64,000 bases of DNA from the NCBI GenBank assembly GCA_943354385.1, contig CALRBR010000001.1, forward strand, positions 2,942 to 66,941, written 5' to 3'. The DNA is from Candidatus Tayloriibacteriota bacterium. Its GTDB lineage: Bacteria > Patescibacteriota > Minisyncoccia > Phycocordibacterales > PALSA-1337. Shown piece by piece: positions 5,305 to 61,507 of the stretch (positions within the stretch are counted from its first letter, which is position 1; every line of letters begins with the position of its first letter). The translations under genes and the position numbers were made by a program. The notes under the pieces are model-generated. The model did not search any database. It was given only the letters and a program-made list of their open reading frames with translations, and was not told the DNA's origin.

Positions 5305-5354
5305 GATGGCATGGTGACTCTGGCGGGCTTTGCTATGACGAAGCTTCAGCGAAG

Positions 5355-5425
5355 GCGAGTGTAGTATAGTGGTAATACGTGTGCTTCCCAAGCATATGAC
5401 GCGGGTCCGATTCCCGCCACTCGCA
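5355..5425 (+). tRNA. tRNA-Gly(CCC)
   Basis: Manual cloverleaf. Acceptor GCGAGTG/CACTCGC, D-arm GTAT-AGTGGTA-ATAC, anticodon loop TTCCCAA, T-arm GCGGG-TCCGATT-CCCGC, discriminator A. No encoded CCA. Confidence 0.85.
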
Positions 5426-5602
5426 CAAAATGAGCGTAGCGATTTTTAAGAGTAGCTGGAATCGGACCGGAAAGGGGTCGGGAAAAATGGCGTTTTCCCG
5501 TGGAGGAAGGATTGGGAGAACCTCGGCCCATCGGTAGATGATGTGCACCTGTAGACGGGGTTCCCCAGGCGTTCGATAATGAAATGTCCCGCCACTAGCA
5601 CA
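5426..5602 (+). repeat. tRNA-trailer composite element A (conserved core GGAAAGGGGTCGGG plus a hairpin plus GTGGAGGAA); ends in a 16-nt duplicate of the tRNA-Gly 3' end
   Basis: The core is shared with copies at 8718-8790, 13534-13613, 51896-51975(-) and 61240-61400(-). tcccgccactagcaca at 5587-5602 matches tcccgccactcgcaca at 5412-5427. Confidence 0.7.
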
Positions 5603-5639
5603 AAAAAGAGGAGTATTTTTTGCTATACTTACTCCACCA

Positions 5640-6899
5640 ATGTCCATCCAGTCTGAAATTAAAAAAGCTCGAAAAACAAAAGTAATTTTCCACATCGATG
5701 GAGATGCGTTTTTTGTCGGTGTTGAAGTTGCTAAAAATCCAAAGCTCAAAGGTCTCCCAGTAGTGACTGGAGAGGAAAGGGGGATTGTTTCCGCACTATC
5801 CTACGAGGCAAAGGCACTTGGTGTGTTGCGTGGTATGCCTATATTTAAAATTAAAAAAGATTTTCCAAAAGTAATTATTCTACCGGGTGACTATGCTTCA
5901 TATGCACGTTATTCAAGCCTTATGTTTGATATTGTGCGCCGATATGTGGATGATGTAGAAGAGTACAGTATTGATGAATGTTTCGGAGATCTCACCGGAC
6001 TTGATCGGCCATTAAAAATGACCTACCTGCAAATAGCTGAGAAAATTAAAAATGAAATAAATGCGGAGTTACAGCTCAGTGTATCTATCGGTATTGCGCC
6101 TACAAAAGTACTTGCCAAGCTGGCTTCAAAGTGGATAAAACCAAATGGTCTGACTTTGATAGACATAAAAACAGCCCAAGATTTTCTCGCAAAAACACCA
6201 ATAGAGAAGATCTGGGGTATCGGACCACAAACCTCAGATTTTTTAAAAAGACGAGGTATGGACACCGCGAAGGATTTTGTGAGCAAAGACCTTGCTTGGA
6301 TAAAACATAATCTCTCTAAACCATACGAGGTGATCTGGCAAGAACTTTCTGGTGTATCCATGATGCATATCGATCCGGTACAAAAGACGGTCTATTCTTC
6401 AGTGCAGAAAACTAGATCATTTCACCCTACTACCAATGATAAAGCCTTCCTTTTTTCACAGATTTCAAAACACATAGAAGATGCGTGCACCAAAGCTCGG
6501 CACTTTCACCTGGCCCCGAAAAAGATATCTATTTTTTTTAAGGACAAAAATTTTAAATTTACCACGGCTTCAATTCCTGTTTCGTCACCGACCAATGCTC
6601 CAGAGATATTGATTTCTCTTGTAAAAAAACAGTTTGAGAAAATGCATACCCCTAGGACTCTCTATCGTACTACTGGCGTTGTACTGCAAGACCTTGTTTC
6701 GGGTCTAGTATCGCAAAGCGACTTGTTTGGCGGTACTGACGAGGCCCACAAATTTGAACGCATACATGAGCAGATTGATTCACTCGAAAATAAATTTGGC
6801 CGACGAGTTGTTTATCTCGCGTCTACACACAAGGCTTTAAAGCAAAAGAAGGTGGGTACTGATTCTGATGACCTGGATAGAAACCTCTTGTTTCTATGA
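5640..6899 (+). CDS. dinB: DNA polymerase IV (Y-family, DinB)
   Basis: VIFHIDGDAFFVGVEV matches the DinB catalytic motif (HVDMDCFFAAVE). Palm, fingers and little-finger regions are present. Confidence 0.85.
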   Translation: MSIQSEIKKARKTKVIFHIDGDAFFVGVEVAKNPKLKGLPVVTGEERGIVSALSYEAKALGVLRGMPIFKIKKDFPKVIILPGDYASYARYSSLMFDIVRRYVDDVEEYSIDECFGDLTGLDRPLKMTYLQIAEKIKNEINAELQLSVSIGIAPTKVLAKLASKWIKPNGLTLIDIKTAQDFLAKTPIEKIWGIGPQTSDFLKRRGMDTAKDFVSKDLAWIKHNLSKPYEVIWQELSGVSMMHIDPVQKTVYSSVQKTRSFHPTTNDKAFLFSQISKHIEDACTKARHFHLAPKKISIFFKDKNFKFTTASIPVSSPTNAPEILISLVKKQFEKMHTPRTLYRTTGVVLQDLVSGLVSQSDLFGGTDEAHKFERIHEQIDSLENKFGRRVVYLASTHKALKQKKVGTDSDDLDRNLLFL

Positions 6900-8363: not shown

Positions 8364-8400
8364 AGCCCCGCGGACGTACTCGTCCGCGGGGCTTTTAAAT
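8364..8400 (+). terminator. rho-independent terminator
   Basis: GC-rich hairpin agccccgcggacg-tact-cgtccgcggggct followed by TTTTAAATTT. Confidence 0.8.
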
Positions 8401-8450
8401 TTAGTAAAAAATGGTATAGTCTTGTGACAGAGCTTGTGTGTTCTGTACCC

Positions 8451-8590
8451 ATTCTCCCTTTAGGAAAGGCCGTCCACAGGTGTCGATCACAAACGATCGA
8501 CTCTGCACCGACAGTACTCTGGCGCGGAGGGATTTAAAATTTAAATCCCTCGGCTTGAAGCCTGCTCCCTTTAGAAAAGGGAGAATAATA
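8451..8590. repeat. modular hairpin repeat cluster R1 (CTCCCTTT..AAAGGGAG, GTCGATC..GATCGAC and GGAGGGATTT..AAATCCCTCC modules)
   Basis: The modules recur at 32243-32350, 33100-33313, 40963-41140, 50641-50672 and 56674-56805. Confidence 0.75.
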
Positions 8591-8596
8591 CAAATC

Positions 8597-8669
8597 GCTC
8601 CCGTAGTTCAATTGGATAGAACGGACCGTTCCTAATGGTTTGATGTCGGTTCAATTCCGGCCGGGAGCA
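8597..8669 (+). tRNA. tRNA-Arg(CCT)
   Basis: Acceptor GCTCCCG/CGGGAGC, D-arm GTTC-AATTGGATA-GAAC, anticodon loop TTCCTAA, T-arm GTCGG-TTCAATT-CCGGC, discriminator A. Confidence 0.85.
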
Positions 8670-8943
8670 CAGCATAAAAAGTATTTTTTGTGCTGTGCGA
8701 ATGGTCGGAATTGAACCGGAAAGGGGTCGGGAAAACAGGCGTTTTCCCGTGGAGGAAAACAACGAGTATTGGAGTGTTAGAAACCGTGGGCTGTACACCG
8801 AATGCTTGGAGGTGTACAGAGACGGAGACTGTCGAGTCGAGTCCGGGTCGGGGACATTTTTAGTAAAAAATGATTCCTGACTCGTAAGAGCCCTGAGTGA
8901 AGCGATGGGCGAGTTCAATAGCGAAGCGTCCGGCCGGGAGCAC
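8670..8943 (+). repeat. tRNA-trailer composite element B; bounded by a 15-nt duplicate of the tRNA-Arg 3' end
   Basis: It starts with an inverted copy of the tRNA T-arm (TCGGAATTGAACCGG). The conserved core is at 8718-8790. tccggccgggagcac at 8929-8943 equals 8656-8670. Confidence 0.7.
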
Positions 8944-8965
8944 CCAATTGTGTATTGTATTTCTT

Positions 8966-10267
8966 ATGCCCCACCTTAACCTAGAAAAAATCAAAAAAAT
9001 CTACTTCATCGGTATCGGCGGTATCGGTGTGTCTGCTATTGCTCGCATGATGGCACTTTCTGGAAAGGAAGTCAGTGGCTCAGATATGAGTCTCTCAGAG
9101 GTCACGCACGAGCTCACACAGTTCGGCATACATATAGACCACGGCCAGTCGATAGACCTCATACCAAAAGATACCGAGCTCGTGATCTATACTATCGCTG
9201 TGGCAACCTTTGATCCAAAGCTCATCGAAGCGATCGACGCTCGAGGTATTCCACGGAAAACCTATCCAGAAATGCTTGGTATTATTTCTGCTGACAGCTT
9301 CACTATCGCTATTTCCGGTACTCATGGAAAGACGACGACCACCGCTATGACAGCAAAGGTTTTTCTCGATGCAGGTCTCGATCCCACAGTCATTGTTGGC
9401 TCATTTTTGAAAGATCAAAAGAGTAATTTTATTGCCGGCAAAAGTAAATATTTCATCGTCGAAGCCTGCGAATATCGTCGCTCGTTTTTAAATCTCACTC
9501 CCACTATTTTAGTCATCACAAATATCGACAATGACCACCTCGACTATTACAAAGACATGGCGGATGTTCAGAGCGCGTTTGCAGAATTGATTGCAAAAAT
9601 CCCTCCGCACGGCGCGGTTATCTGTAATCCAAATGATCCAACTGTCGCTCCCGTCATTAAAAATGCGTCGTGTAAGATTATTGACTACACAGGTTATTTA
9701 TATCCAAACATCACCCTCAAAGTGCCCGGTATGCACAACAGAAAGAATGCTGGAGCTGTATCTGCGATAGCTGATTTGACCGGCATATCAGAGCGAGTTA
9801 CCAAAGCCTCGTTAGAAGCTTTTACTGGCACATGGAGACGGTTTGAGTACAAAGGTACTCTCAGCTCTGGGGCCATTGTCTACGACGATTATGGCCATCA
9901 TCCAACCGAGATAGAGGCTACTTTGGCAGGTACCAGGGAGCTCTTTAAAAAGGAGCGGATTATATTGGTTTTCCAGCCTCACTTATATAGTCGCACCAAA
10001 GACCACTTGGCTCATTTTGGCAAAAGTTTTAAAGAGGCGGATATGGTAATTATTCCTCCTATATATCCTGCTCGAGAAGTATTTGACCCAAGCATCACCT
10101 CAGAAATGGTAATGGAAGAAATAAATAAAAATGGAGGTAATGCGAAAGCTGTCGCAACTTTTGATGAAGTGATCACTCTACTCAAAAAAGAGGCAAAAAG
10201 TGGCGACGTGATTATGACTATGGGCGCGGGAGATGTGTATACGATAGGCGAAGCACTTTTGAAATAA
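8966..10267 (+). CDS. murC: UDP-N-acetylmuramate--L-alanine ligase
   Basis: IYFIGIGGIGVSAIARMMALSGKEVSGSD and a GTHGKTTTTAM P-loop. The start is moved to the ATG at 8966, because ORF 8897 begins inside the tRNA-trailer repeat. Confidence 0.85.
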   Translation: MPHLNLEKIKKIYFIGIGGIGVSAIARMMALSGKEVSGSDMSLSEVTHELTQFGIHIDHGQSIDLIPKDTELVIYTIAVATFDPKLIEAIDARGIPRKTYPEMLGIISADSFTIAISGTHGKTTTTAMTAKVFLDAGLDPTVIVGSFLKDQKSNFIAGKSKYFIVEACEYRRSFLNLTPTILVITNIDNDHLDYYKDMADVQSAFAELIAKIPPHGAVICNPNDPTVAPVIKNASCKIIDYTGYLYPNITLKVPGMHNRKNAGAVSAIADLTGISERVTKASLEAFTGTWRRFEYKGTLSSGAIVYDDYGHHPTEIEATLAGTRELFKKERIILVFQPHLYSRTKDHLAHFGKSFKEADMVIIPPIYPAREVFDPSITSEMVMEEINKNGGNAKAVATFDEVITLLKKEAKSGDVIMTMGAGDVYTIGEALLK

Positions 10268-13412: not shown

Positions 13413-13485
13413 GCCAAGATAGCTCAGTTGGTAGAGCATTCCCCTGAAGAGGGAAGGGTCCCCAGTTCGAACCTGGGTCTTGGCA
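13413..13485 (+). tRNA. tRNA-Phe(GAA)
   Basis: Acceptor GCCAAGA/TCTTGGC, D-arm GCTCAGTTGGTAGAGC, anticodon loop CTGAAGA, T-arm CCCAG-TTCGAAC-CTGGG. Confidence 0.85.
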
Positions 13486-13620
13486 CAGAAACGAACGCAG
13501 TGAGTCTGTGATAAGATCTAGGTTCGAACGTTGGAAAGGGGTCGGGAAAACCCTAGTTTTCCCGTGGAGGAAAACAACGAGTACTCGAGTGTTAGAAACC
13601 GTTGGTTTCTAAAGCATAGA
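13486..13620 (+). repeat. tRNA-trailer composite element C (core 13534-13613)
   Basis: ggaaaggggtcgggaaaaccctagttttcccgtggaggaaaacaacgagtactcgagtgttagaaaccgttggtttctaaag. A degenerate tRNA 3'-end-like stretch is at 13664-13690. Confidence 0.7.
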
Positions 13621-13622
13621 TA

Positions 13623-13658
13623 CTAAAAAGAAAAGGCTATGTAGCCTTTTCTTTTTAG
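13623..13658. terminator. bidirectional terminator hairpin between tRNA-Phe(+) and hsp20(-)
   Basis: ctaaaaagaaaaggctat/gtagccttttctttttag perfect inverted repeat flanked by A/T runs on both sides. Confidence 0.7.
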
Positions 13659-13697
13659 TATTGAGCAGTTCGATCTTGTTTTGGCGCCCGGTTTACC

Positions 13698-19080: not shown

Positions 19081-19084
19081 TTTG

Positions 19085-19156
19085 TGACCCCACGGAGAGT
19101 CGAACTCCGCTTAACAGATTGAAAACCTGCTGTCCTAACCGATAGACGATGGGGCC
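19085..19156 (-). tRNA. tRNA-Glu(TTC)
   Basis: The reverse complement is GGCCCCATCGTCTATCGGTTAGGACAGCAGGTTTTCAATCTGTTAAGCGGAGTTCGACTCTCCGTGGGGTCA. Anticodon loop TTTTCAA. T-arm CGGAG-TTCGACT-CTCCG. It ends 4 nt before the tsaD start codon. Confidence 0.8.
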
Positions 19157-19236
19157 TTATTTGCAACAGGAACACTATAGCATTTTTTGTATATTTTGCA
19201 AAAAAGTGTTATTGTTTGTAAGCTGAAATAGAAAAA

Positions 19237-19329
19237 GGAAAGGTACCGAAGAGGTTATAACGGCGCCGATTCGAAATCGGATGGTCGGGTCAAACCGGCA
19301 CGAGGGTTCGAATCCCTCCCTTTCCGCCA
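19237..19329 (+). tRNA. tRNA-Ser(CGA), type II with long variable arm, encoded CCA
   Basis: Acceptor GGAAAGG/CCTTTCC, anticodon loop TTCGAAA, variable arm GGTCGGGTCAAACCGGCAC, T-arm GAGGG-TTCGAAT-CCCTC, then G-CCA. Confidence 0.75.
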
Positions 19330-19358
19330 ACACAAAAATCTGCTATCCTGAAGTTCTT

Positions 19359-19432
19359 GGGCGGTTAGCTCATTTAGCTAGAGCGCATCGTTGACGTCGA
19401 TGAGGTAATAGGTGCAATTCCTATACCGCCCA
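19359..19432 (+). tRNA. tRNA-Val(GAC) with an unusual T-loop (TGCAATT)
   Basis: Acceptor GGGCGGT/ACCGCCC, D-arm GCTCATTTAGCTAGAGC, anticodon stem-loop CATCG-TTGACGT-CGATG. The T-loop has G at the position that is normally U55. Confidence 0.7.
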
Positions 19433-19443
19433 CAGAAAGTATT

Positions 19444-33605: not shown

Positions 33606-33647
33606 TTTTTGAATAGGGGTAAAAAGTTTGTCGAGTATTGATTAAAA

Positions 33648-33694
33648 TAACTACAGCCCTAAAATTTTCAGTAGAAAATTTTAGGGCTGTAGTT
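33648..33694. promoter_or_regulatory. perfect 20-bp-stem hairpin in the leader or promoter region of the giant gene
   Basis: aactacagccctaaaattttc agtaga gaaaattttagggctgtagtt. No T-tract follows. tatataat lies 12 nt upstream of ATG 33746. Confidence 0.5.
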
Positions 33695-33745
33695 ATCCAC
33701 ACATACACACAGACTTTTCCTATTATTAGGTATATAATTGTACCT

Positions 33746-36700
33746 ATGCGTTTAGCAAAGTTATTTTTTGCTTCTATCCTTTTTATTTTCGGCTCGTTGT
33801 TTTTTGTATCTACGGCATCGGCGCAGTCTTTTCAGAATCCTCTTCTGTTTGTTCCATTCGAATTGGATTATGTCGACTATAGCTCCAATAAGCTCTATAG
33901 CAACTGGTTTACAGGAGGAGCTCCGGCCGACATTGATACAAGTATAAAAAAATTCGGTTCCGCTTCCGGCCATTTTCCAGCTACGGGAATAGATAGGGAG
34001 ATGTTATACAAAAGCCCTAATTTTGATTTCTCTAATCAAGATTTCACCATCGATTTCTGGTGGTATCCAACCACCCAAAGCGTGGGTTTTTTTAATAAAC
34101 CACTACTTTCTTTTTGGGATCTCAATGGAAGTGGTGGCATCAATAATGTTAAGTGGGCTTTAATCTATTTTAGTGAATATGATTTTTTTGCGGTGGTTGA
34201 TTACAATAAGGGAGTAATTCTACGTTCGATTGATAGTGGTGGACTATTAAATTTTAACCAATGGAATCATATATCTGTACAATGGAAGCAGGGGACAGGG
34301 GGTACCGATGGTGGCAGTGGGCTGGGTATTTCTATAAATGGCAAGATGCGTTCGTCAAACTCTTTTTATAACAATGGCATGATCCCGTCTGGGGTGGGTG
34401 CTATGGTGGTTGGAGACAGTGGTTCATCCTGGCCACGCGTCGATTATTATCTGGATGAACTTCGTGTTACAAAAGGTACAGCTCTATGGGGAAGCGTCGC
34501 CAATCAGAACGGTTCCTTTACCACTCCATCTATTAATGATTATCCAAAAATTGAAAACAAGACAGCGGAATCTGTTATAAGTACTACCGCTACACCCATG
34601 GTTCAAGGTACCATACCTCTTCTACTCGCGCATTTTGATAATAATTATTATGATAATAGTATAAATAATATTTACAGCAATTGGTTTATTGGCGGGGGAC
34701 CGTCTGAGATTGATTCGGCTATAAAAAAGTTTGGGATTGGGTCGGGACATTTTTCTGCAACAGGAATAGATAAGGAGAATCTATACCAAGACCCTCGGTT
34801 AGACCTTGCGAGCGGCGATTTTACTGTAGATTTCTGGTGGCGTCCGACAGGTGATTTGACTAGCTTTAATAAAATCCTATTGAGTTTTTGGGGTCTTGAT
34901 GCAAATAGTCTCATAAAAGATCGGAAGTGGTATCTAAAATATGACGGGAGTGGGGCGAACCCAGGTTTTGAAGTGGTTAATGATCAGGGTAGAATGCTTC
35001 GCTGGATGGGTAGCGATTCGCTTTTGAAGGTCAACGAATGGAATCATATTTCTCTACAAAAGAAACAGGGATCAGGGGGTAGTGATGGTGGTAGTGGTCT
35101 CGGTCTTTCTATCAATGGATATATGCGACCGTCCAATTCTTTCTATAACTACGGCACCCTTCCAGGAGGGGTTGGTGCGATGGTCCTAGGGTATAAAGAT
35201 ACAAGTTTCCCGAGAGTTGATTACTATATTGACGAACTTCGTGTCACAAAAGGTACAGCTCTCTGGGGGAATGTTAGTAATCAGAATGGTTACTTTGCTC
35301 CGCCCACAAAAGGTGATTATTCCAATCTAGTAGTAGATCAAAATAAAGTAACTACTCCTGTCGCTGGTCATATTGATACGCATACTGTCTCCCTTGGTAA
35401 CACCACTGATACTACTGAATCAAATGTTGCCTATTCTGCATGCCCTCCTGGATCGACCAGGCCATCTACACGCGAAGAGTATTTGATCAAACTCGACGGC
35501 ACCCCAAAGTTCACGAGCTATCTTGATATAAACAATAAGCTGATCTGTACGACGTATTGGGCAGGTAATGCGACAACCACTACCAGTAGTAAGCTAAAGC
35601 GTTTTGAGTACGATACTGATGGTCAGATCGCTCGAGAGATCTATTATGGTTTGGACGGTGCAAGTATTACTGATGTGGTGACTTATTTTTCAAAATCTGC
35701 CGGAGGTGCTCGTCAAAAGGAGATTCAAAATCGAAGCGGTACCGAATATTACAAGCGCTACTCGACTACCGGCAGACTTCTCTATGAGCACGAATATAAA
35801 AATAGTCAGTATGTAGTGTCGCGTAACTTTACGTATGATGGGGCAGGTAGACTCGCAAGCGAACTTATCTTTAACTCATCGGTTCAATATGAAAAAGTCG
35901 TTTATATACGAAATGGCAGTGGAGTCGTAACACAGACAGATAGTTACAGAGCGTATGCACCGATAGGTACAGATACGGCAAATTATGTCCACACCACCTC
36001 TACCTACGCAGGTACGGTGGTGACAGGTATTACTCGTACTTATTTCAATAAAGATGCTGGCTCACCGACGGCTTTGCGCACTGAAATAGCCCGATATAAT
36101 ACTTCCGGTGTAGCGATAGATCAGAGGACATTTGACTACGCTCAAAATAAACAAAAGTTGAGTACCTACATCACTACTGGCACAGCATCATTGCTTGGGC
36201 GACTGAAGACAGACGAGGAGTGGTCTACTGTGGATTATTCATACGCCTCATCTTCTCTTGCGTATAACACGACTACCGGCGAGCTCCTTTCTTGGACTAA
36301 AACCAACTATGACGATATGAGTGCTCAGGGCGCAAAAGCTGGATACTACGGGAAAAAATACACGGTGTATAACCCTAAAACAGGCTTACCCAAAACGGAG
36401 GATTTTATTGACTACTATTTACCTAGCTTAAATTGGAAACAATCCAACTCTGTTAAGTATGATGAAAAAGGTTTGGTGGATGCACGTCGGGTTCATCAGT
36501 ACAGAGATTCTGCTGCTGCAAGATTTAACTACATATCTACAGTATATTCAAAAGACGGGCTCATAAATGCGATTTCAAAGTATGACGATGTGACTGGTAA
36601 TGTTCTTTCTAACGAAACATATTATGGAAATGGCGAGCCTTGGTATCTTCAAAAATATAAGTACAATACTGCCGCTGGCCAATACGAAGTCAGTTCTTTC

Positions 36701-39700
36701 AGGGTAAATTATAGGGATGCTCTTTCTACCAGTACGGCGAGTGATCTTGTAGCTGACGGTACTGCCGTGAATACAAATCTCCTTGTTTTTGTGAGTCAGT
36801 CAGTCCCGAGAGACCCACTTAGTCAAAAGAAAATAGGTGATAAGATCTTGGCTAATATTTCTGATGTGTCTCTTCGTGGCCAAGCGGAGGGCGGTACTGA
36901 AAAGTTGGCTATTCGTGCGGTGCTCAAGGCTCTCTTACCAGAGTATAAAAACGCCCTCGTTACTGTTTCTGAAAGTGATCCACTCAAAAAGGAAAAACGT
37001 TACGAGATCTACGTGGCGTATTCCTCGAGAATATCTAGAGCGATTTATGCAATAGAGTATCGTATCCATAATATATCAAAAAATCTTAATACAGATAAGT
37101 CCTTAGAGGACACGGTGGTGGGATGGTATGGTATAGACGGTACTGATCTTTCAGGCAACACAGAATTCTGGGGTCTATATATACGACCGGGGGCAGTGGC
37201 GTATGCAGATCCAGAAGCTGTCTATGTAGACATGAGTATCATAGATCCATCTGCGGTTGATTTTGCCACAAACGCTTCTTCCTACGATGACCTCAAGAGT
37301 ACTGCAAAGAAAATAGAAAAATGGGACGCGCTCAGCCAGGGTGCGGGTGTCTCATATTCGAATAGTACTCTATCATTGTCATTGTTCAACCTATCCGGCG
37401 GCGACGGTAGATACATCACACTTGATGATATGACAAAAGCTGACCCAACAGTAAATCTTACATTGGATAGGTTTGAGGAGGACATGAAGACTTCGGGGGT
37501 AACACTCTCCACTCTTAGTGAGTCGGCGCTCATAGATAAGATGTATGAATACTTTAATAAACAAAGCTATTTCAGCTATTCGTACGACCTATCACAAGTA
37601 TCACAGACAGTAAATCAAACCTTGGTACGTAAAGGTGGAGATTGTGAAGATTTTGGTCTATTCTTCCTTAGTTTATTGAGGGGTGAATTTGCTAGACTCG
37701 GTAACACATCTATCACAAGCAGACTTGGTTTGGCGTTTGCGAATGTTGATAATAACGCTGCTATTTCGTCGAGTAACCGCGGAGGAGGTCATGCGTCTAT
37801 TGTGTATAGAAGTAATGCAGACAATCAGTACTACTATATTGATGCAAGCTTTATATTTTTGGGATCAGGGGCGGATCCTGCGAGACCTGTACCAGTAGCA
37901 CGTAATCTTGTAAACTCTGCCGGTGCCAGTACCGCAGGTGTATTGGGTCAGGGTGGCTGGTATGTAAAGGTTGCTGACTTCTTCCCAATAAACGGCCCAC
38001 TTGTCCCTTTTAATTCAGGACGTATTAGTACTTTCCACGATAACACCAGCCAGACTAATTCCGTAGATACCATTGTCGCCCAAGTTTCAAATATCTACAC
38101 CAAACTAGAACCATACAATCCGCTAGTCACCACACTTGCTTCGAGTACAGTCCAGACTATTCCTAACTTCAAAAATCAGTCAGCGGAGTTTGTGGTAGAA
38201 AGTACGCACAGCTTCTTTAATAAACTGAAAGATTACAGAGCCGATCAGGGAGCAGATATCTGGAGTGGTGTAGGTCAGACATTGCCAGCGGTTATAAAAG
38301 CAGACGGCACAGTCAATCTCGCTGGGAAGATTTCTGGCGACTGTGAGGACCTGGCTTTTGCTGAAGCGAGCCTCCTTGAAAATGTGCTTCTACGATATTA
38401 CCTTGCTGGTGGTGCCGTGCCACAAAATGCCGCCAATCAGGCAAAAAGTAATGTCATAATACTCGCTGAAAAGAATTACGGCTCATCGACAGGTCCCTCA
38501 CATCTCTATGTCGGCTATGTGACCCCTAAGACAGATACTTCTCCAGCTGTTGTCCGTCTCATTGATCCACAGCTCGGCACTATCGGCGCACCTCAGCTCA
38601 TGAGCGATTTGTATAACGACAAGTATCTATTCTTTTCTGACCGGGAAAAGGTGAGTGCGATTACTCCATACGATTGGAGTGCACTCAATTTTTCTTCTGC
38701 TGTAGCTGCCGCTGCTGCAAATGGTATCGTGTTAAATCCTGGTCCGGTAGATCCAAAGGCTCCGGTAAAGCAGAATCTCACCCCTAATCAACAGGAAGCG
38801 ATCATTAATGCGATAGTCACTGCAGACCCACCAAAGCCAAGTGCATTCAGTACATTTATTAGTTTTGTGTACGAAAAATCCGGACTAAAATCGATACTAG
38901 AGGCGAGTACTATTACAGAAACTTTTGTCCGAGCAGCAGCAACTTTGGCAGTGATGATAGGTGGTGGACCAGTAGGGACAGTAGTCACAGCATCTGGCAC
39001 TATTATTAATACAGCCTCAGGGTCACCAGCAGATAAGCCTATCATTCCTAGCGTAGGTGATGCAGCGGTTTCTGTTATAAATACTGCAGGGCGAGTCGTG
39101 GCGAGTGTTTTCGGTATCTTTACGGCACCAGGTGGACCATCTGATATGTCTGACGCACGAATGAACGCTGAGGCAGCTTTTGCTGCTGGGAGAATCAGTC
39201 CAGCTGGACCAATGAATTTCGGTTCCGGTGCTGGAGATGTAGGTTGCTCCGCGGCTTCATGCGGTACTGTTTTTGTCCAAAGAAATAATACTACAAATGT
39301 GGTATCTGCGATTGGCTATGGTGAAACATCTCGTACTAATCAGACTAGGTCGTATAACGAGTCTACTAATGTGATGACCATTACTACCAATACCACGATT
39401 GTACTACCTCTGTCGCCATATTTTCAGTCGCCAACAGCCCGTCTTATACCGCCAAAACCTACATGCCCCCTAGGCACCCAACTTTGTTCCGAGGTAACCA
39501 ATGAGATAGTTAGAGCTCCAGCAAACGCCACTCTTTCCGGTCCTCTGGCTACCTGCTATGTTTCTGGTGAAGCACCGTCTTGTCAGACGCGTCAGTACAA
39601 TACACAGTGGTCGTGCAATAACTCACTTTTGTATAAAAAAGATGCTACAGGTACAGGCTGTATCTGTGATGATCCAACAGCAACTGGTGTTAGTCCAGCG

Positions 39701-40576
39701 GGTGAGTGTCAGTACGGCGCGACGATATCCTGTGTGGGGGGTATTGATCCAAACGCCATACCGTCACCAGTAGGTGTTGGTGCGAAAGGGGTCAGTTCAT
39801 TCCCTGCTCCAGCTGGCCGAATTTCTTCTCCGCTAGCGTGGACACTTTCTAGTACAGCTGTTGCGGACGGTAATACCGAATGTAAATGGTCGTGTGGTAC
39901 CGGGTTTACTTTTGACGCTGGATTTTGTAAATCGAGTCAAGTATTTTCTTGCACGGATCCTGTCGGAGTTACACCGATGAATAGTCCAAAGATGACTTTG
40001 TGTCCAGAAGATCAGAGAGATCTTTCTTCAGACACACAAGGTGTAATTGTCACTAGCTGTACCATCCCTAAAAAATGTGAGTATACATGCAATCTTCCTA
40101 CGTATACACGTTCCTCGACACCACCATTTTCTTGTGTTTGCTCGATAGGGACAAACCCTGATGGATCGTGTACACTGCCCACCGTGACTTCTTCTAACGT
40201 GAGTATCTTTGCTACCCCTGGAACAAAAGTTACTGGTAATATTGTAACTCAATATCTGGATACTAATAAATCAACCGCTATTAATAAAAAGATTACCGTA
40301 AAAAAGAACCAGGAGTTTAAATTGAATTGGGAGCATACTACACCAAGCGCCTCAGGTAAATGTACGCCAACATTTACCAGTCCTATTACTGGCACTGGTG
40401 CGGAAGCACTATGGAAAGAAGTCCTACCTACTGGAGTGAATGGTTCAAAGGAGGGTTTGAAACTAGATAAAACCGGCCAGTATATCTTTGGAGTTTCTTG
40501 TGATTCAGGAGGTATAACTTCTGCAGATTCCGTAACTGTACAAGTAGCACCATCCGGTTCATTTGAAGAATTTTAA
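33746..40576 (+). CDS. giant secreted multidomain protein: signal peptide, 2x LamG-like (Laminin_G_3-type), YD/RHS repeats, 2x transglutaminase-like cysteine-protease cores, Cys-rich region, C-terminal beta domain
   Basis: Signal peptide MRLAKLFFASILFIFGSLFFVSTASA. Two ~230-aa units ending in LDELRVTKGTALWG (LamG-type). FEYDTDGQIAREIYYG and FTYDGAGRLASE YD repeats. GGDCEDFG...GGGHASIVYRS...YYIDAS and GDCEDLAFAEASLL...HLYVGY...IDPQ (transglutaminase-like Cys/His/Asp cores). More than 30 Cys between nt 39470 and 40190. Confidence 0.85.
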   Translation: MRLAKLFFASILFIFGSLFFVSTASAQSFQNPLLFVPFELDYVDYSSNKLYSNWFTGGAPADIDTSIKKFGSASGHFPATGIDREMLYKSPNFDFSNQDFTIDFWWYPTTQSVGFFNKPLLSFWDLNGSGGINNVKWALIYFSEYDFFAVVDYNKGVILRSIDSGGLLNFNQWNHISVQWKQGTGGTDGGSGLGISINGKMRSSNSFYNNGMIPSGVGAMVVGDSGSSWPRVDYYLDELRVTKGTALWGSVANQNGSFTTPSINDYPKIENKTAESVISTTATPMVQGTIPLLLAHFDNNYYDNSINNIYSNWFIGGGPSEIDSAIKKFGIGSGHFSATGIDKENLYQDPRLDLASGDFTVDFWWRPTGDLTSFNKILLSFWGLDANSLIKDRKWYLKYDGSGANPGFEVVNDQGRMLRWMGSDSLLKVNEWNHISLQKKQGSGGSDGGSGLGLSINGYMRPSNSFYNYGTLPGGVGAMVLGYKDTSFPRVDYYIDELRVTKGTALWGNVSNQNGYFAPPTKGDYSNLVVDQNKVTTPVAGHIDTHTVSLGNTTDTTESNVAYSACPPGSTRPSTREEYLIKLDGTPKFTSYLDINNKLICTTYWAGNATTTTSSKLKRFEYDTDGQIAREIYYGLDGASITDVVTYFSKSAGGARQKEIQNRSGTEYYKRYSTTGRLLYEHEYKNSQYVVSRNFTYDGAGRLASELIFNSSVQYEKVVYIRNGSGVVTQTDSYRAYAPIGTDTANYVHTTSTYAGTVVTGITRTYFNKDAGSPTALRTEIARYNTSGVAIDQRTFDYAQNKQKLSTYITTGTASLLGRLKTDEEWSTVDYSYASSSLAYNTTTGELLSWTKTNYDDMSAQGAKAGYYGKKYTVYNPKTGLPKTEDFIDYYLPSLNWKQSNSVKYDEKGLVDARRVHQYRDSAAARFNYISTVYSKDGLINAISKYDDVTGNVLSNETYYGNGEPWYLQKYKYNTAAGQYEVSSFRVNYRDALSTSTASDLVADGTAVNTNLLVFVSQSVPRDPLSQKKIGDKILANISDVSLRGQAEGGTEKLAIRAVLKALLPEYKNALVTVSESDPLKKEKRYEIYVAYSSRISRAIYAIEYRIHNISKNLNTDKSLEDTVVGWYGIDGTDLSGNTEFWGLYIRPGAVAYADPEAVYVDMSIIDPSAVDFATNASSYDDLKSTAKKIEKWDALSQGAGVSYSNSTLSLSLFNLSGGDGRYITLDDMTKADPTVNLTLDRFEEDMKTSGVTLSTLSESALIDKMYEYFNKQSYFSYSYDLSQVSQTVNQTLVRKGGDCEDFGLFFLSLLRGEFARLGNTSITSRLGLAFANVDNNAAISSSNRGGGHASIVYRSNADNQYYYIDASFIFLGSGADPARPVPVARNLVNSAGASTAGVLGQGGWYVKVADFFPINGPLVPFNSGRISTFHDNTSQTNSVDTIVAQVSNIYTKLEPYNPLVTTLASSTVQTIPNFKNQSAEFVVESTHSFFNKLKDYRADQGADIWSGVGQTLPAVIKADGTVNLAGKISGDCEDLAFAEASLLENVLLRYYLAGGAVPQNAANQAKSNVIILAEKNYGSSTGPSHLYVGYVTPKTDTSPAVVRLIDPQLGTIGAPQLMSDLYNDKYLFFSDREKVSAITPYDWSALNFSSAVAAAAANGIVLNPGPVDPKAPVKQNLTPNQQEAIINAIVTADPPKPSAFSTFISFVYEKSGLKSILEASTITETFVRAAATLAVMIGGGPVGTVVTASGTIINTASGSPADKPIIPSVGDAAVSVINTAGRVVASVFGIFTAPGGPSDMSDARMNAEAAFAAGRISPAGPMNFGSGAGDVGCSAASCGTVFVQRNNTTNVVSAIGYGETSRTNQTRSYNESTNVMTITTNTTIVLPLSPYFQSPTARLIPPKPTCPLGTQLCSEVTNEIVRAPANATLSGPLATCYVSGEAPSCQTRQYNTQWSCNNSLLYKKDATGTGCICDDPTATGVSPAGECQYGATISCVGGIDPNAIPSPVGVGAKGVSSFPAPAGRISSPLAWTLSSTAVADGNTECKWSCGTGFTFDAGFCKSSQVFSCTDPVGVTPMNSPKMTLCPEDQRDLSSDTQGVIVTSCTIPKKCEYTCNLPTYTRSSTPPFSCVCSIGTNPDGSCTLPTVTSSNVSIFATPGTKVTGNIVTQYLDTNKSTAINKKITVKKNQEFKLNWEHTTPSASGKCTPTFTSPITGTGAEALWKEVLPTGVNGSKEGLKLDKTGQYIFGVSCDSGGITSADSVTVQVAPSGSFEEF

Positions 40577-41911: not shown

Positions 41912-42502
41912 TTAATTTTTTAAATTAAAATACTTACAAATCATCTTGTCACCCTCGAGTTGATCGACTATCATATAGAGAACATCTTTGCCGATACGCA
42001 AATCTGCCTTCAAAAGAGACACGAGTTTTTCGCACGGATATGGGTATATCCAGACGCTGTTCTGAAGTTTTATAAAGCCGATTGACATTAATGTTGATCG
42101 AAGTTTTTCCCGAATAAACTTCTTTCTTTCTGGAATATCGAAAATAATCACACGCCACTTCTTATCCCACCTTGGCGGATGGTTATTTTGTTTTGAAAAA
42201 AGAATTGCTCGGTCGAGCATCTTTTTGCCCCTTTCTGTGAGTTGAAGTACCTTGCCATGAACTGTGACCTCAACTTTCAGGAAGCCATTTTTGATAAGAT
42301 TATCTTTCGTTCTCAGTATACTTTTGTGTTTGTAATTATAGGCTTTCCTGTCTCCAGAACCGATCTTCAATAATTTTAAGGCATTTGGAGCAAGAAGTCC
42401 GAGTGCAAGTATTCCGGTGGCAGATACAGTTCCAAGTATTATCTGTTGGAGTTTTGTTGTTCGTATCTTGTTCCTCTCCCGTTTTTCTAGTAAGTTGTTC
42501 AT
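41912..42502 (-). CDS. membrane-anchored wHTH plus Cas2-fold (PaaX-family-like) putative regulator
   Basis: N-terminal hydrophobic helix. wHTH-like LIKNGFLKVEVTVHGKVLQLTERGKKML. C-terminal VIIFDIPERKKFIREKLRSTLMSIGFIKLQNSVWIYPYP resembles the Cas2/PaaX C-domain (VxxYDI...RR...L...G.R.Q.SV). Confidence 0.45.
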   Translation of the reverse strand: MNNLLEKRERNKIRTTKLQQIILGTVSATGILALGLLAPNALKLLKIGSGDRKAYNYKHKSILRTKDNLIKNGFLKVEVTVHGKVLQLTERGKKMLDRAILFSKQNNHPPRWDKKWRVIIFDIPERKKFIREKLRSTLMSIGFIKLQNSVWIYPYPCEKLVSLLKADLRIGKDVLYMIVDQLEGDKMICKYFNLKN

Positions 42503-51527: not shown

Positions 51528-51751
51528 ATAAAATAAGCTAGAGAATATAGCAGGTTTTACAAGAATTGGCAATCTAGCTGGGTGTAACTTTTCGGTTCTT
51601 GGAGGCGGGAAGTTCGAAACTTACAGTTTCAGTACCCCGATTGGATTTTTTCTTCATGTTTCGCAATTGAAAAAACGCTCAATCGGGCTTCGATTCCCAC
51701 CGAAAGCGTCCCCACGCTTTCTCCCGAGTACAATATCACTGCGTTCGTCTG

Positions 51752-51835
51752 TGCTCGGGGTGGGAATCGAACCCACACGGCCTTGCGGCCAACAGATTTT
51801 AAGTCTGGCGCGTATACCAATTCCGCCACCCGAGC
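51752..51835 (-). tRNA. tRNA-Leu(TAA), type II
   Basis: The reverse complement is GCTCGGGTGGCGGAATTGGTATACGCGCCAGACTTAAAATCTGTTGGCCGCAAGGCCGTGTGGGTTCGATTCCCACCCCGAGCA. The anticodon loop is CTTAAAA. Confidence 0.85.
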
Positions 51836-51859
51836 GTATGAATTTTGAAATTTAAAAAA

Positions 51860-52024
51860 GAGGCTTAAGGCGGGTATCTCACTCGGAGCAAAGCTCCTCT
51901 TTAGAAACCCACGGTTTCTAACACTCGAGTACTCGTTGTTTTCCTCCACGGGGAACTCCCGTTCCCCGACCCCCTCCCACGGTTCGAGACCGGCCTAGGG
52001 GCGGTAAACCGAACGGTTTACTTG
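51860..52024 (-). repeat. tRNA-trailer composite element D (3' of tRNA-Cys on the - strand); its core hairpin carries a compensatory change
   Basis: On the - strand: GGGGGTCGGGGAACgggaGTTCCCCGTGGAGGAAAACAACGAGTACTCGAGTGTTAGAAACCGTGGGTTTCTAAAG. A terminator-like hairpin gtaaaccgttcggtttac lies right after the tRNA-Cys. Confidence 0.7.
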
Positions 52025-52098
52025 AGGCGTAGGCCGGGATCGAACCGGCGCATAACAGTTTTGCAGACTGTCGCGTTAACCAGCTTCGCCACTACGCC
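52025..52098 (-). tRNA. tRNA-Cys(GCA)
   Basis: The reverse complement is GGCGTAGTGGCGAAGCTGGTTAACGCGACAGTCTGCAAAACTGTTATGCGCCGGTTCGATCCCGGCCTACGCCT. The anticodon loop is CTGCAAA. Confidence 0.85.
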
Positions 52099-59580: not shown

Positions 59581-59665
59581 GCGCCGGTCGAATAGCGGCC
59601 ATTTCAGGAGACTGTAAATCTCCCGCCTTCGGGCATCGTCGGTTCGAGTCCGACCCGGCGCACCA
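59581..59665 (+). tRNA. tRNA-Tyr(GTA), type II, encoded CCA
   Basis: GCGCCGG acceptor. Anticodon stem-loop GGAGA-CTGTAAA-TCTCC. Long variable arm CCGCCTTCGGGC. T-arm GTCGG-TTCGAGT-CCGAC. Then ACCA. Confidence 0.85.
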
Positions 59666-59667
59666 AA

Positions 59668-59693
59668 TAAAAAAACACCCTAAGGTGTTTTTT
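59668..59693 (+). terminator. rho-independent terminator after tRNA-Tyr
   Basis: aaaaaaacaccc-taa-ggtgttttttt. Confidence 0.75.
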
Positions 59694-59697
59694 TATT

Positions 59698-59849
59698 TGC
59701 GCCCGGAGAAACTGCTGGGGAGCAGTTTTGTGTTGGGCTTGAAGCCTCGCTGAGTACTTTTTTGAGTGTACTCATGAAGAAAAAGTCCAGCGACGGGGAC
59801 TGAAACTGTAAGTTTCGAGAAATGTAATCATGGTCCGACCCGGCACCCA
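59698..59849 (+). repeat. tRNA-trailer element F; bounded by a 17-nt near-duplicate of the tRNA-Tyr 3' end
   Basis: gtccgacccggcaccca at 59833-59849 matches gtccgacccggcgcacca at 59648-59665. The module GAAGCCTCGCTGAGTACTTTTTTGAGTGTACTCATGAAGAAAAAGTCCAGCGA (59739-59795) is shared with element E. Confidence 0.7.
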
Positions 59850-59892
59850 GTATTTTATTTTTCTTTCCCCGTGCTATAGTAATCTCATCTTT

Positions 59893-60732
59893 ATGAAAAC
59901 AAATTACTGCTATCTGAACGGAAAAATACTGCCAGTCCAAGACGCTATGGTTTCAGTGTACGATATCGGATTGCTTCGAGGATATGGTATCTATGAAGGT
60001 ATTACTACTTATAAAAACAAGCCATTTCGGCTTGCGGATCATCTGGCACGTTTCCGTTCGTCCGCAAAGGAACTCGATCTCGCGATTCCATCTTCTGATG
60101 AGGAAATAGAAAAAGCAGTCCTATCCTTGGTTGAAAAAAACGGTTTCGAGAGGACAAATTTACGTGTAATTCTCACTGGCGGAAACACAATTGCTGGGAT
60201 TGAGTTTGATGCAGATAAACCAACTTTCTATATTCTTGCAGAGGAGTATAAATCATTACCGAGTGAGATGTATGCTTCCGGTGCATCTCTCATTACTCAC
60301 GAGCACCAGCGAGCCTTACCAGAATACAAGACGATAAATTACATCACTGCAGTACAGGTACAGAATGAACGAAAGGCAAAAGGTGCTATTGAAGTGCTCT
60401 ATGTTTCAAACGGTAAAGTTCTTGAGGCTGCGACAAGTAATATTTTTATAGTAAAAGACGGTGTGGTAATTACGCCTAAAAATAATGTATTGGCTGGCAT
60501 TACTCGTAATGTGGTGATTGAAGTTGCTCAGAAAAAATATAAAGTGATTGAAAGGGAAGTGACCATCACTGATCTTTTGTATGCCGACGAAGTTTTTCTA
60601 ACGGCGAGTTATAAAGAAATCGTTCCAATAGTAGAGATTGACGGTAAAAGGATTGCTCAAGGAAGTGTCGGCAAGGTGACGCTGGTACTGATGAAAGATT
60701 TTCAAGAATATACCGAAAAAGGTGACTGGTAG
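59893..60732 (+). CDS. class IV aminotransferase (branched-chain / D-amino-acid aminotransferase family)
   Basis: LRGYGIYEGI, ERTNLRVILTGG, ATSNIFIVKDGVVITP and VLAGITR are class IV AT hallmarks. The start is moved to ATG 59893 (MKTNYCYL). Confidence 0.8.
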   Translation: MKTNYCYLNGKILPVQDAMVSVYDIGLLRGYGIYEGITTYKNKPFRLADHLARFRSSAKELDLAIPSSDEEIEKAVLSLVEKNGFERTNLRVILTGGNTIAGIEFDADKPTFYILAEEYKSLPSEMYASGASLITHEHQRALPEYKTINYITAVQVQNERKAKGAIEVLYVSNGKVLEAATSNIFIVKDGVVITPKNNVLAGITRNVVIEVAQKKYKVIEREVTITDLLYADEVFLTASYKEIVPIVEIDGKRIAQGSVGKVTLVLMKDFQEYTEKGDW

Positions 60733-60999: not shown

Positions 61000-61435
61000 G
61001 TCTTATAAATATGAATGCGGGCCCACCTAGACTCCTGGGGAACCCACGGTTGATAGTCCGCTGAGTACCATCCTTACAGGAGCTGTACACCTTTCGCTCT
61101 CTTTGGAGTACAAAGCGCTCAAGGTCTTGCGAAGCTCCAGGTATTCGCTTCTCACCTTACATGAGTAGTATCCATCGCTGGACTTTTTCTTCGCGAGTAC
61201 ACTTAAAAAAGTACTCAGCGAGGCTTCGAGTCTCAGACACCTCGTAAACCCACGGTTTTCCGACGCTCGTCGGGCTCGCTGCCTTCCTCCACGGGAAAAC
61301 GCCATCTTCCTTACAGGAACTGTACACCTTTCGCTTTTTGAATACAAAATACTCAAGGTCTTGCGAAAGTGTCCCACACTTTCTCACCCGACCCCTTTCC
61401 ATGTCTCATCGTCCATTTGTTCGCTTCGCTCTCTG
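61000..61435 (-). repeat. tRNA-trailer composite element E (3' of tRNA-Trp on the - strand), with an interrupted core and two ~62-nt internal direct repeats
   Basis: On the - strand: GGAAAGGGGTCGGG (61386-61399 on +) ... inserted unit ... GGCGTTTTCCCGTGGAGGAAGG. Units are at 61062-61124 and 61301-61360. The module shared with element F is at 61184-61240. tgcgggccc at 61016-61024 duplicates the tRNA-Trp 3' end. Confidence 0.7.
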
Positions 61436-61507
61436 CGGGCCCGCTGAGACTCGAACTCAGAACTTCAGTTTTGGAGACCGATGTTTTACCATTGAAACTA
61501 CAGGCCC
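61436..61507 (-). tRNA. tRNA-Trp(CCA)
   Basis: The reverse complement is GGGCCTGTAGTTTCAATGGTAAAACATCGGTCTCCAAAACTGAAGTTCTGAGTTCGAGTCTCAGCGGGCCCG. Anticodon loop CTCCAAA. T-arm CTGAG-TTCGAGT-CTCAG. Confidence 0.85.

Follow-up and report, generated by a model that had tools for sequence, protein, structure and literature searches.

Protein-less elements bounded by copies of gene 3' ends behind tRNA genes of a Tayloriibacteriota bacterium and other Patescibacteria

Why should the 3' end of a tRNA gene recur a few hundred nucleotides behind the gene, and do so at several tRNA genes of one genome? The question is raised by a stretch of 64,000 nt (hereafter the window) from Candidatus Tayloriibacteriota bacterium (contig CALRBR010000001.1, positions 2,942 to 66,941). 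Using ARAGORN and Rfam, we called 10 tRNA genes in this 64-kb window, and behind seven of them (Gly, Arg, Phe, Cys, Leu, Tyr and Trp) lies a non-coding trailer of 160–420 nt. This amounts to about one element per 8 kb, with the majority of the tRNA genes occupied (the tRNA-Glu/tRNA-Ser/tRNA-Val cluster at 19084–19433 carries no element, either in the window or in the related contig L121). A sequence-only reading of the window had listed repeats behind the Arg, Gly, Tyr, Trp and Phe genes and had taken them for att-like marks of integration; all of these repeats are present, and the interpretation is largely right, with an object more unusual than first proposed. The explanation that we prefer, at a probability of roughly 55%, is that the trailers are protein-less integrative elements of Patescibacteria, ~150–420 nt long, which are inserted by a Campbell-type exchange with a gene end that they carry themselves.

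At tRNA-Arg, the terminal segment of the gene (such gene ends are called T below; here tccggccgggagcac, 8656–8670) has an exact second copy (Tcopy) at 8929–8943 (15/15), and the odds of any 15-mer recurring by chance inside ~300 nt are about 3e-7. At tRNA-Gly 19 nt recur with 1 mismatch (5412–5430 versus 5587–5605), at tRNA-Tyr the downstream repeat (59833–59849) consists of 12 exact nucleotides (59833–59844), a 2-nt deletion and then ACCCA, and at tRNA-Trp it spans 19 nt with 3 mismatches (61016–61034), more than the 9 nt it had been given before. The downstream repeat of tRNA-Phe (13666–13685) is degenerate, and further degenerate direct copies are found behind tRNA-Cys (51860–51875, minus strand) and tRNA-Leu (51592–51618, minus strand). 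When all tRNA 3' ends were scored against all trailers in a control matrix, every end fitted its own trailer best, with cognate direct-repeat scores of 30 (Arg), 25 (Gly), 24 (Tyr) and 21 (Trp) against a background of 12–18. Chance falls far short of accounting for the duplicated tRNA 3' ends, which are real. Every trailer also carries an imperfect inverted copy (antiT), which covers the T arm, the acceptor 3' strand and a few trailer bases (cognate scores of 24–28 versus a background of 12–20 in the same control matrix). T and antiT together make a long hairpin, often tipped by a stem that looks like an intrinsic terminator; folded as single strands, the T-loop-antiT segments of the window gave z-scores from -4.9 to -10.3. 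The order of parts is constant, i.e. gene end (T), loop or terminator, antiT, structured core and Tcopy. The inverted copy and the core had not been listed in the sequence-only reading, nor had the Cys and Leu copies or the layering and nesting described below.

Integrases that target tRNA genes classically leave direct repeats of tRNA 3' ends behind, and the repeats might on this ground flank eroded remnants of integrase-carrying islands or prophages. The earlier reading, which had proposed either remnants or miniatures mobilised in trans, had suggested a search for an integrase. Pfam and NCBIfam scans found no integrase, reverse transcriptase or transposase among the 50 open reading frames (ORFs) of the window, and the ORFs adjoining 121 copies of the core among the matches listed, once clustered, fall into housekeeping families only, with no shared integrase. 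A distant Tcopy that would mark an autonomous copy was found nowhere up to 4 kb downstream, and an exact-motif scan of viral contigs gave 7 matches, all in one high-GC phage at a terminator/ribosome-binding site, which is a chance match. Against eroded islands stand the absence of integrase fragments from both sets of ORFs, the chance-only viral match, the uniformly small size of the trailers and a conserved core common to at least 118 genome stretches; we consider erosion highly improbable, the least probable of the explanations weighed here. What stands of the two earlier proposals is the miniature: the inserts of 160–420 nt hold no real ORF and, having no protein gene, are presumably mobilised in trans.

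Orthologous sites can be compared in two metagenome contigs, L120 and L121, which share synteny with the window over ~17 kb (MurC identity to the window of 91% and 89%, respectively). In L121 the tRNA-Phe site is empty: between the tRNA gene and the same downstream gene lie an encoded CCA and a terminator. In L120 the site holds two or three layers, with CCCA and a terminator, native-like in arrangement, behind the outermost copy. The tRNA-Phe site is a presence/absence polymorphism across three genomes, and an empty site of the kind that the earlier reading had proposed to look for in relatives does exist. Of the Gly element, the window and L121 have the complete form and L120 a 5'-truncated one, and the Arg element is orthologous in all three genomes, with the window core 88% identical to the L120 and L121 elements. 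These comparisons bear on whether the trailers are non-mobile, cis-acting 3' structures of the host (RNA or DNA) that serve termination, transcript stabilisation or tRNA 3' processing and that spread anciently, evolved in place and had their alleles shuffled by homologous recombination. Such a history would suit the orthologous Arg element, the strongly conserved core with its covarying helices, and the position of the core, always downstream of and co-oriented with highly expressed genes. It sits badly with a Phe site that is empty in one relative and layered in another, with the truncated Gly element, with nested and stacked modules and with the decay of antiT and of many Tcopies in the window; moreover, terminators often lie between gene and core, so that the core need not be transcribed. 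We regard a host structure of this kind as quite unlikely.

The core at the Gly, Arg, Phe, Cys and Trp sites is of one type (module A), which reads GGAAAGGGGTCGGG-hairpin-CCCGTGGAGGAA and continues with a second hairpin, GGGAAAACC-GWG-GGTTTCCC; across genomes it reads GGGGTCGGG-hairpin-CCCGTGGAGGAA plus the second hairpin. An exact-pattern scan with one genome per species found the module-A core in at least 118 genome stretches, nearly all of them from Patescibacteria/Parcubacteria-type metagenome-assembled genomes (MAGs) or related candidate phyla; Kaiser-, Yonath-, Taylor-, Nomura-, Ryan-, Vogel- and Campbellbacteria are among the matches listed, to which the following counts also refer. A tRNA gene lies on the same strand at most 150 nt upstream of 63 of the 121 module-A copies, and more than 15 tRNA identities precede the module. 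Other copies are found repeatedly behind the 3' ends of rpsI (S9) and rpmG (L33), again with T, antiT and Tcopy. The inverted repeat is present in 65 of the 105 copies from other genomes and the direct repeat in 56; both occur together in 46, as compared to 0/105 with either repeat in a swapped-flank control. The repeats behave as att-like sites in that the upstream copy completes the tRNA, and the earlier view of them was too narrow in that the targets are not tRNA-specific (rpsI, rpmG, other). Core segments are 94–96% identical between the window and distant genomes in which coding genes are ~72% identical; on these figures the core is conserved more strongly than the surrounding genes.

At Rfam gathering scores the search returned only tRNAs, and at E <= 10 the trailers gave only spurious miRNA-like hairpin matches. 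In the literature, we found no description of the element (the closest paper concerns group I introns in anticodon loops), and the family is apparently undescribed so far. An intron-like insertion at T-loop positions 59/60, and likewise at the 3' ends of protein genes, would be removed at the RNA level and would make Tcopy the real 3' end. The block of identity does begin at tRNA position 60, Tcopy is often perfect and keeps an intact frame at rpsI and rpmG, and introns are common in Patescibacteria (PMC13011429). The tRNA or ORF is, however, already complete with the upstream copy, defects are seen in several Tcopies (the 2-nt deletion at Tyr; degenerate copies at Phe, Leu and Cys), third-layer copies contain stop codons, and no Rfam intron or ribozyme (group I/II, small) matched the trailers even at E <= 10. 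An intron is therefore, in our judgement, very unlikely.

The three gene-end copies turn out to have different histories. At rpsI and rpmG sites, all nine Tcopies (9/9) have an intact frame and stop over the last 4–14 codons, and nearly all of their differences from T are synonymous, among them serine AGY/TCN switches. In all five informative protein-gene cases (5/5), antiT is complementary, perfectly or almost so, to the upstream T rather than to Tcopy. It follows that T and Tcopy are different functional alleles and that T travels with antiT. Stacked protein-gene loci have the order gene-T1-antiT1-core-T2-antiT2-other module-T3, in which T3 is decayed; older layers are more decayed in general, and it is the third-layer copies that hold the stop codons. 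At tRNA sites (among the matches listed), Tcopy is identical to the gene at 14/14 of positions 60–73 in 39 of 63 copies, while antiT is a perfect complement in 2 of 63, with mismatches that lean towards A/T and have no wobble signature. Since Tcopy is mostly perfect and antiT decayed, antiT is older than Tcopy, as expected if the element carries antiT. The loop motif ACGAACGMAGTGAG recurs after T behind different tRNAs in different genomes, which suggests that the loop can be element-borne as well. The patterns at protein genes and at tRNAs both follow from a single rule: an imported end must keep the gene working, so that nucleotide identity is needed for a tRNA and only amino-acid identity for a protein.

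A different origin for these copies would be duplication of the target at insertion, in which a non-autonomous element enters at the foot of a terminator or T-arm hairpin and a long staggered break or a replicative template switch lets the exposed strand be copied both inverted (antiT) and direct (Tcopy); variants are target-primed reverse transcription (TPRT) with snap-back priming and fork stalling at the structured core. The repeat length, which varies from 14 to at least 46 nt and may include a native-like terminator (L085, L020), fits this route, as do the lack of a recombinase among window ORFs and copy neighbours and a structure-prone core whose triplex-like covariation could stall polymerases. 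In L085, the copy that looks youngest, a near-identical repeat of 46 nt includes a native-like terminator, and a perfect 22-nt antiT extends the complementarity of the terminator stem. Duplication at insertion predicts equal ages, yet the proportions of perfect Tcopies and antiTs given above are far apart; at rpsI and rpmG it would have to account for T and Tcopy as different synonymous alleles whereas T and antiT match perfectly, and at different tRNAs for conserved element-borne loops behind T. Group II introns and their reverse transcriptases are, moreover, reported absent from Patescibacteria (PMC13011429). As regards a retroelement of the kind of short interspersed nuclear elements (SINEs) or TPRT, variable-length repeats and 5'-truncated copies occur, but T, antiT and Tcopy differ in age or allele, and the scanned window ORFs include no reverse transcriptase. 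We consider target duplication unlikely.

Several further ideas were tried and rejected. An RNA closing stem between antiT and Tcopy fails at protein-gene sites, where the counterpart of antiT is the upstream T rather than Tcopy. RNA-level selection on the T:antiT hairpin is not borne out by its mismatches (42 GT/TG versus 27 AC/CA, with 127 others), i.e. there is no wobble excess. Mutagenesis of the kind known from diversity-generating retroelements (DGRs) was dismissed on the protein-gene sites, where T/Tcopy differences are not adenine-specific.

The junction before Tcopy is informative about the presumed crossover. In 27 of 52 cases the 7-mer before Tcopy equals the cognate T loop with TC changed to GA at positions 55–56, and other such 7-mers are split by the 9-nt mini-hairpin AGCGAAGCG exactly at 59/60. 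Opposite antiT (ATCGAAC), the GA change makes tandem G.A mismatches beside the presumed crossover, and by analogy these resemble the imperfect central regions of attP(+) and attC.

In the module-A core, hairpins P2 and P4 covary: 95% of cells are paired, double changes occur in 8 of 16 pairs, and 0/500 shuffles reach the observed values, with many compensatory variants among 82 distinct P4 hairpins. The purine strand GGAAAGGG, which lies 5' of P2, is a mirror of the P2 5' strand across a G-T-C turn, and the stretch that spans the putative triplex reads GGAAAGGGG-TC-GGGGAAAC...GTTTCCCC. This mirror region is found in the window at 5469–5490, 8718–8739, 13533–13554 and 51957–51978 (minus strand) and in 111 distinct copies in L001–L121. 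At mirror position 4 the combinations are A/A (56), G/G (38), T/A (10), A/G (6) and G/A (0), and at position 5 they are A/A (87) and G/G (13), with non-identical bases in 11 of 111 copies; these counts, like the covariation counts, come from related sequences and are hence not independent events. The rules of the antiparallel purine-motif triple helix are G.G-C, A.A-T and T.A-T, and the mirror covariation suggests such a helix in the core. To our knowledge, purine-motif triplexes have been reported to form from DNA strands only. G.U pairs are scarce (2 of 376 cells in P2 and 2.8% of P4 pairs), which hints at a structure at the DNA level. The 9-mer AGCGAAGCG contains GCGAAGC, a very stable DNA mini-hairpin; it is found at 8920–8928, 61422–61430 and many loci, recurring in P3, behind tRNA-Trp and at element junctions, where it falls exactly on T-loop position 59/60 of Tcopy. 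GCGAAGC itself is not significantly enriched in the window (10 observed versus 5.7 expected).

Other modules accompany module A. Module B is a distinct core; the Tyr and Leu elements have it, and so does the Trp trailer in its second half. Module C (~86 nt; TGAGAAA...GCAAGACCTTGAG...AAAGCGAAAGGTGTACAG...CTGTAAGGA) is nested in hairpin loops of other modules, namely in the P2 loop of the Trp element and in P4 of L097 and L102.

The explanation by integration of a carried gene end builds on what the sequences give directly, i.e. architecture, conservation, presence/absence polymorphism, layering and the differing histories of T, antiT and Tcopy. The free element would have three parts: T', a replacement for the 3' end of the target gene; antiT', such that T'-loop-antiT' (the loop often being a terminator) would fold into a long hairpin mimicking the double-stranded target; and the conserved structured core. 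T' would recombine with the chromosomal gene end in a Campbell-type exchange, with the crossover at tRNA genes placed at or just 3' of the T loop (~59/60). The product would be gene-T-loop-antiT-core-Tcopy, in which the upstream repeat completes the gene and the displaced native end becomes the downstream repeat. By analogy with known systems, the free element may be single-stranded DNA folded like the attP(+) of CTXphi or the attC of integrons, and the catalyst of the exchange may be encoded elsewhere, as a recombinase (Xer-like or other) or a repair activity.

The comparison with known systems brings out likenesses and differences. As in tRNA-targeting prophages, integrative and conjugative elements and islands, the direct tRNA 3' repeats begin in or beside the T loop, the upstream copy restores the tRNA with an end supplied by the element, and relatives have empty sites. 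Unlike those integrase elements, the trailers measure 150–420 nt and not kilobases, encode no integrase or other protein, occupy many tRNA species and protein-gene ends as one family, and have an extra inverted att copy. In CTXphi, two inverted att copies fold into attP(+), the host recombinase swaps one strand pair and replication completes the process (PMC4246890, PMC3442271, PMC4792948). The trailers resemble integrative mobile elements exploiting Xer (IMEX) such as CTXphi in having no recombinase of their own (host XerCD serves CTXphi; PMC4246890, PMC3442271), in inverted attachment copies that with their loop form a hairpin mimicking the double-stranded target, in a predicted topology of repeat, loop, inverted copy, element and repeat with tandem or layered arrays, and in mismatches near the crossover (here TC to GA, or a 9-nt bulge, at T-loop positions 55–60). 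They differ from CTXphi in that the target is not dif, no Xer-binding half-sites are recognisable, a wide variety of targets is used, the size is at least 20-fold smaller, replication and structural genes are lacking, and the single-stranded form and Xer dependence are presumed here. Three features give indirect hints of a single-stranded intermediate: T:antiT without wobble bias, P2 nearly without G.U, and covariation by triplex rules.

As with integron cassettes and attC (PMC4792948), the site would be set by a folded, imperfectly paired strand and not by sequence, and units without a protein gene, mobilised in trans, would be stacked with the newest beside the entry point. Unlike integrons, the trailers have no intI/attI platform (no intI was found among the scanned window ORFs), their hairpin copies the target gene end, and their insertion sites are dispersed. 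The attC R boxes (GTTRRRY, RYYYAAC) are not matched either, the junction 7-mers being GTTCGAT or GTGAGAT, paired with ATCGAAC. The trailers are also like bacterial miniature inverted-repeat transposable elements (MITEs) and REP-like repeats (Correia, RUP, BOX, ERIC, REP/BIME) in that they are short, non-coding, multi-copy, structured and intergenic and give rise to mis-annotated ORFs. Unlike MITEs, they lack both constant terminal inverted repeats and a short, fixed-length target-site duplication; instead, their ends vary with the target, consisting of direct and inverted gene copies of 14–46 nt.

Several points weigh against integration by a carried gene end. No recombinase or other partner protein is present among the ORFs scanned. 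The diversity of targets (many tRNAs, rpsI, rpmG, other) is not explained by a sequence-specific recombinase, and the origin of new specificities is hard to explain when cores are near-identical across sites within one genome. A free or circular form is something that we infer. The presence of the Arg element in all three related genomes also fits a fixed and possibly useful feature, and L085 also fits target copying at insertion. CCA follows the discriminator in 10 copies after T versus 7 after Tcopy; with such similar bases behind both, the idea that the native CCA is always displaced downstream to Tcopy does not hold in general.

A further and bolder step, which we find doubtful as a whole, would be to regard the trailers as mobile elements of a new class, i.e. 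nucleic acids of ~150–250 nt without protein genes, probably single-stranded DNA, that would choose their target through their gene-end hairpin and whose core (purine-motif triplex plus two hairpins) would recruit or replace the recombination machinery. If so, such a hairpin-guided system could be retargeted by changing the hairpin alone. If the elements are active, Patescibacteria genomes of less than 1 Mb hold dozens of copies of the smallest known integrative elements, whose mechanism would require no protein encoded by the element itself. As the target-mimic hairpin suggests, the integration of folded single strands, known until now only from CTXphi-type phages and integrons, may be far more general, and the triple-helix covariation, if true, would be a rare natural case of a conserved purine-motif triplex. 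The elements also matter for annotation, as they cause false ORF extensions and spurious ORFs and can replace tRNA 3' ends and trailers, and in an uncultured phylum the displaced gene ends preserve, as fossil alleles, a record of horizontal exchange.

Four of the elements in the window lie on the plus strand. The upstream repeat of tRNA-Gly(CCC) (5355–5426) comprises the 3' part of the gene together with trailer bases; antiT (5442–5468), an imperfect inverted copy of the tRNA 3' third, forms a hairpin with 5404–5430 (z = -4.9). The Gly module-A core (5469–5569) consists of GGAAAGGGG-UC, the P2 hairpin, GUGGAGGAA and a P4 hairpin with a nested 35-nt insert, and is followed by a T-loop-like segment with the 9-mer (5570–5586) and by Tcopy. 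The insert in the P4 loop is itself a hairpin (CGGCCCATCGGTAGATGATGTGCACCTGTAGACGG, 5523–5557), and a near-identical one is found at the equivalent place in L054, a Taylorbacteria MAG. We note that the acceptor, D, anticodon and T stems of the syntenic tRNA-Gly(CCC) genes (window 5355–5426, L120 3342–3413, L121 7944–8015) differ, with flanking genes ~80% identical, and that T, antiT and Tcopy follow the local tRNA in each genome, which suggests replacement of tRNA-Gly together with its element.

Behind tRNA-Arg(CCU) (8597–8670) come an AT-rich loop (8671–8689) and antiT (8690–8717), which with the loop and the tRNA 3' third forms the long hairpin with z = -10.3. The module-A core (8718–8790) contains the triplex-like purine strand, P2, GUGGAGGAA, P3 and the 5' half of P4; a variable insert of 119 nt in the P4 region (8791–8909), not found in the orthologous L120 and L121 elements, and the T-loop-like CGAGTTCAAT with the AGCGAAGCG mini-hairpin (8910–8928) separate it from Tcopy. 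The 14-mer TTTAGTAAAAAATG is found both upstream of tRNA-Arg (8400–8413) and in the 119-nt insert (8856–8869), and may be a duplicated promoter-like sequence. At 9975–9995 in L121, within the orthologous Arg element, a Tcopy stub, TCCGGCC, is followed by GTCCCCGTA, which is the 5' start of the same tRNA-Arg and not its 3' acceptor strand. At tRNA-Phe(GAA) (13413–13486; T at 13463–13487), the element (13488–13685), which has no counterpart at the orthologous L121 site, consists of the loop ACGAACGCAGTGAG (13488–13504), antiT (13505–13529), the module-A core (13533–13614), a terminator (13623–13658) and the degenerate Tcopy. The element of tRNA-Tyr(GUA) (59581–59665) spans 59664–59849 and includes a terminator hairpin (59664–59699), antiT (59692–59706), the module-B core (59738–59819) and Tcopy; CCA is encoded in this tRNA gene and in that of tRNA-Ser, and is not encoded in most of the occupied tRNA genes.

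The other three elements are on the minus strand. That of tRNA-Cys(GCA) (52024–52098) spans 51860–51997, with antiT at 51980–51997, the module-A core at 51899–51978, GAGTGAGAT at 51876–51884 and the degenerate Tcopy. The element of tRNA-Leu(UAA) (51751–51835) spans 51592–51750 and starts with the loop; its antiT is split (51723–51730 and 51685–51701), and the module-B core lies at 51613–51684 before the degenerate Tcopy. The composite element behind tRNA-Trp(CCA) (61435–61507; element 61016–61434) comprises module A (61241–61400) with module C nested in its P2 loop (61301–61386), antiT (61225–61236), module B (61172–61224), a second module C (61068–61156) and Tcopy.

As the sequence-only reading had claimed, the ORF extensions that start at 8897 (murC) and 59830 (aminotransferase) are almost certainly false: both overlap elements, and the murC ATG at 8966 is aligned with the start in relatives. 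The true starts are probably 8966 for murC and 59894 for the class-IV-like aminotransferase. Mechanically called ORFs or extensions that lie wholly or partly inside the elements (8571–8918, minus; 8897–8965; 5333–5749, minus; 51629–51949, minus; 59830–59893; 61027–61377, minus; and 61157–61402, minus), with ORFs of 80–140 aa, are almost certainly spurious.

A family of proteins of ~225 aa with a helix-turn-helix-like N-terminus is found near five module-A copies (L114 313–1047 and four other loci), and might be homing-endonuclease-like. The window ORF at 41915–42502 (minus strand) matches the central Cas2-like domain of PaaX (PF20803) and has several small ORFs without a family match nearby, and a 2312-aa ORF is located at 33638–40576.

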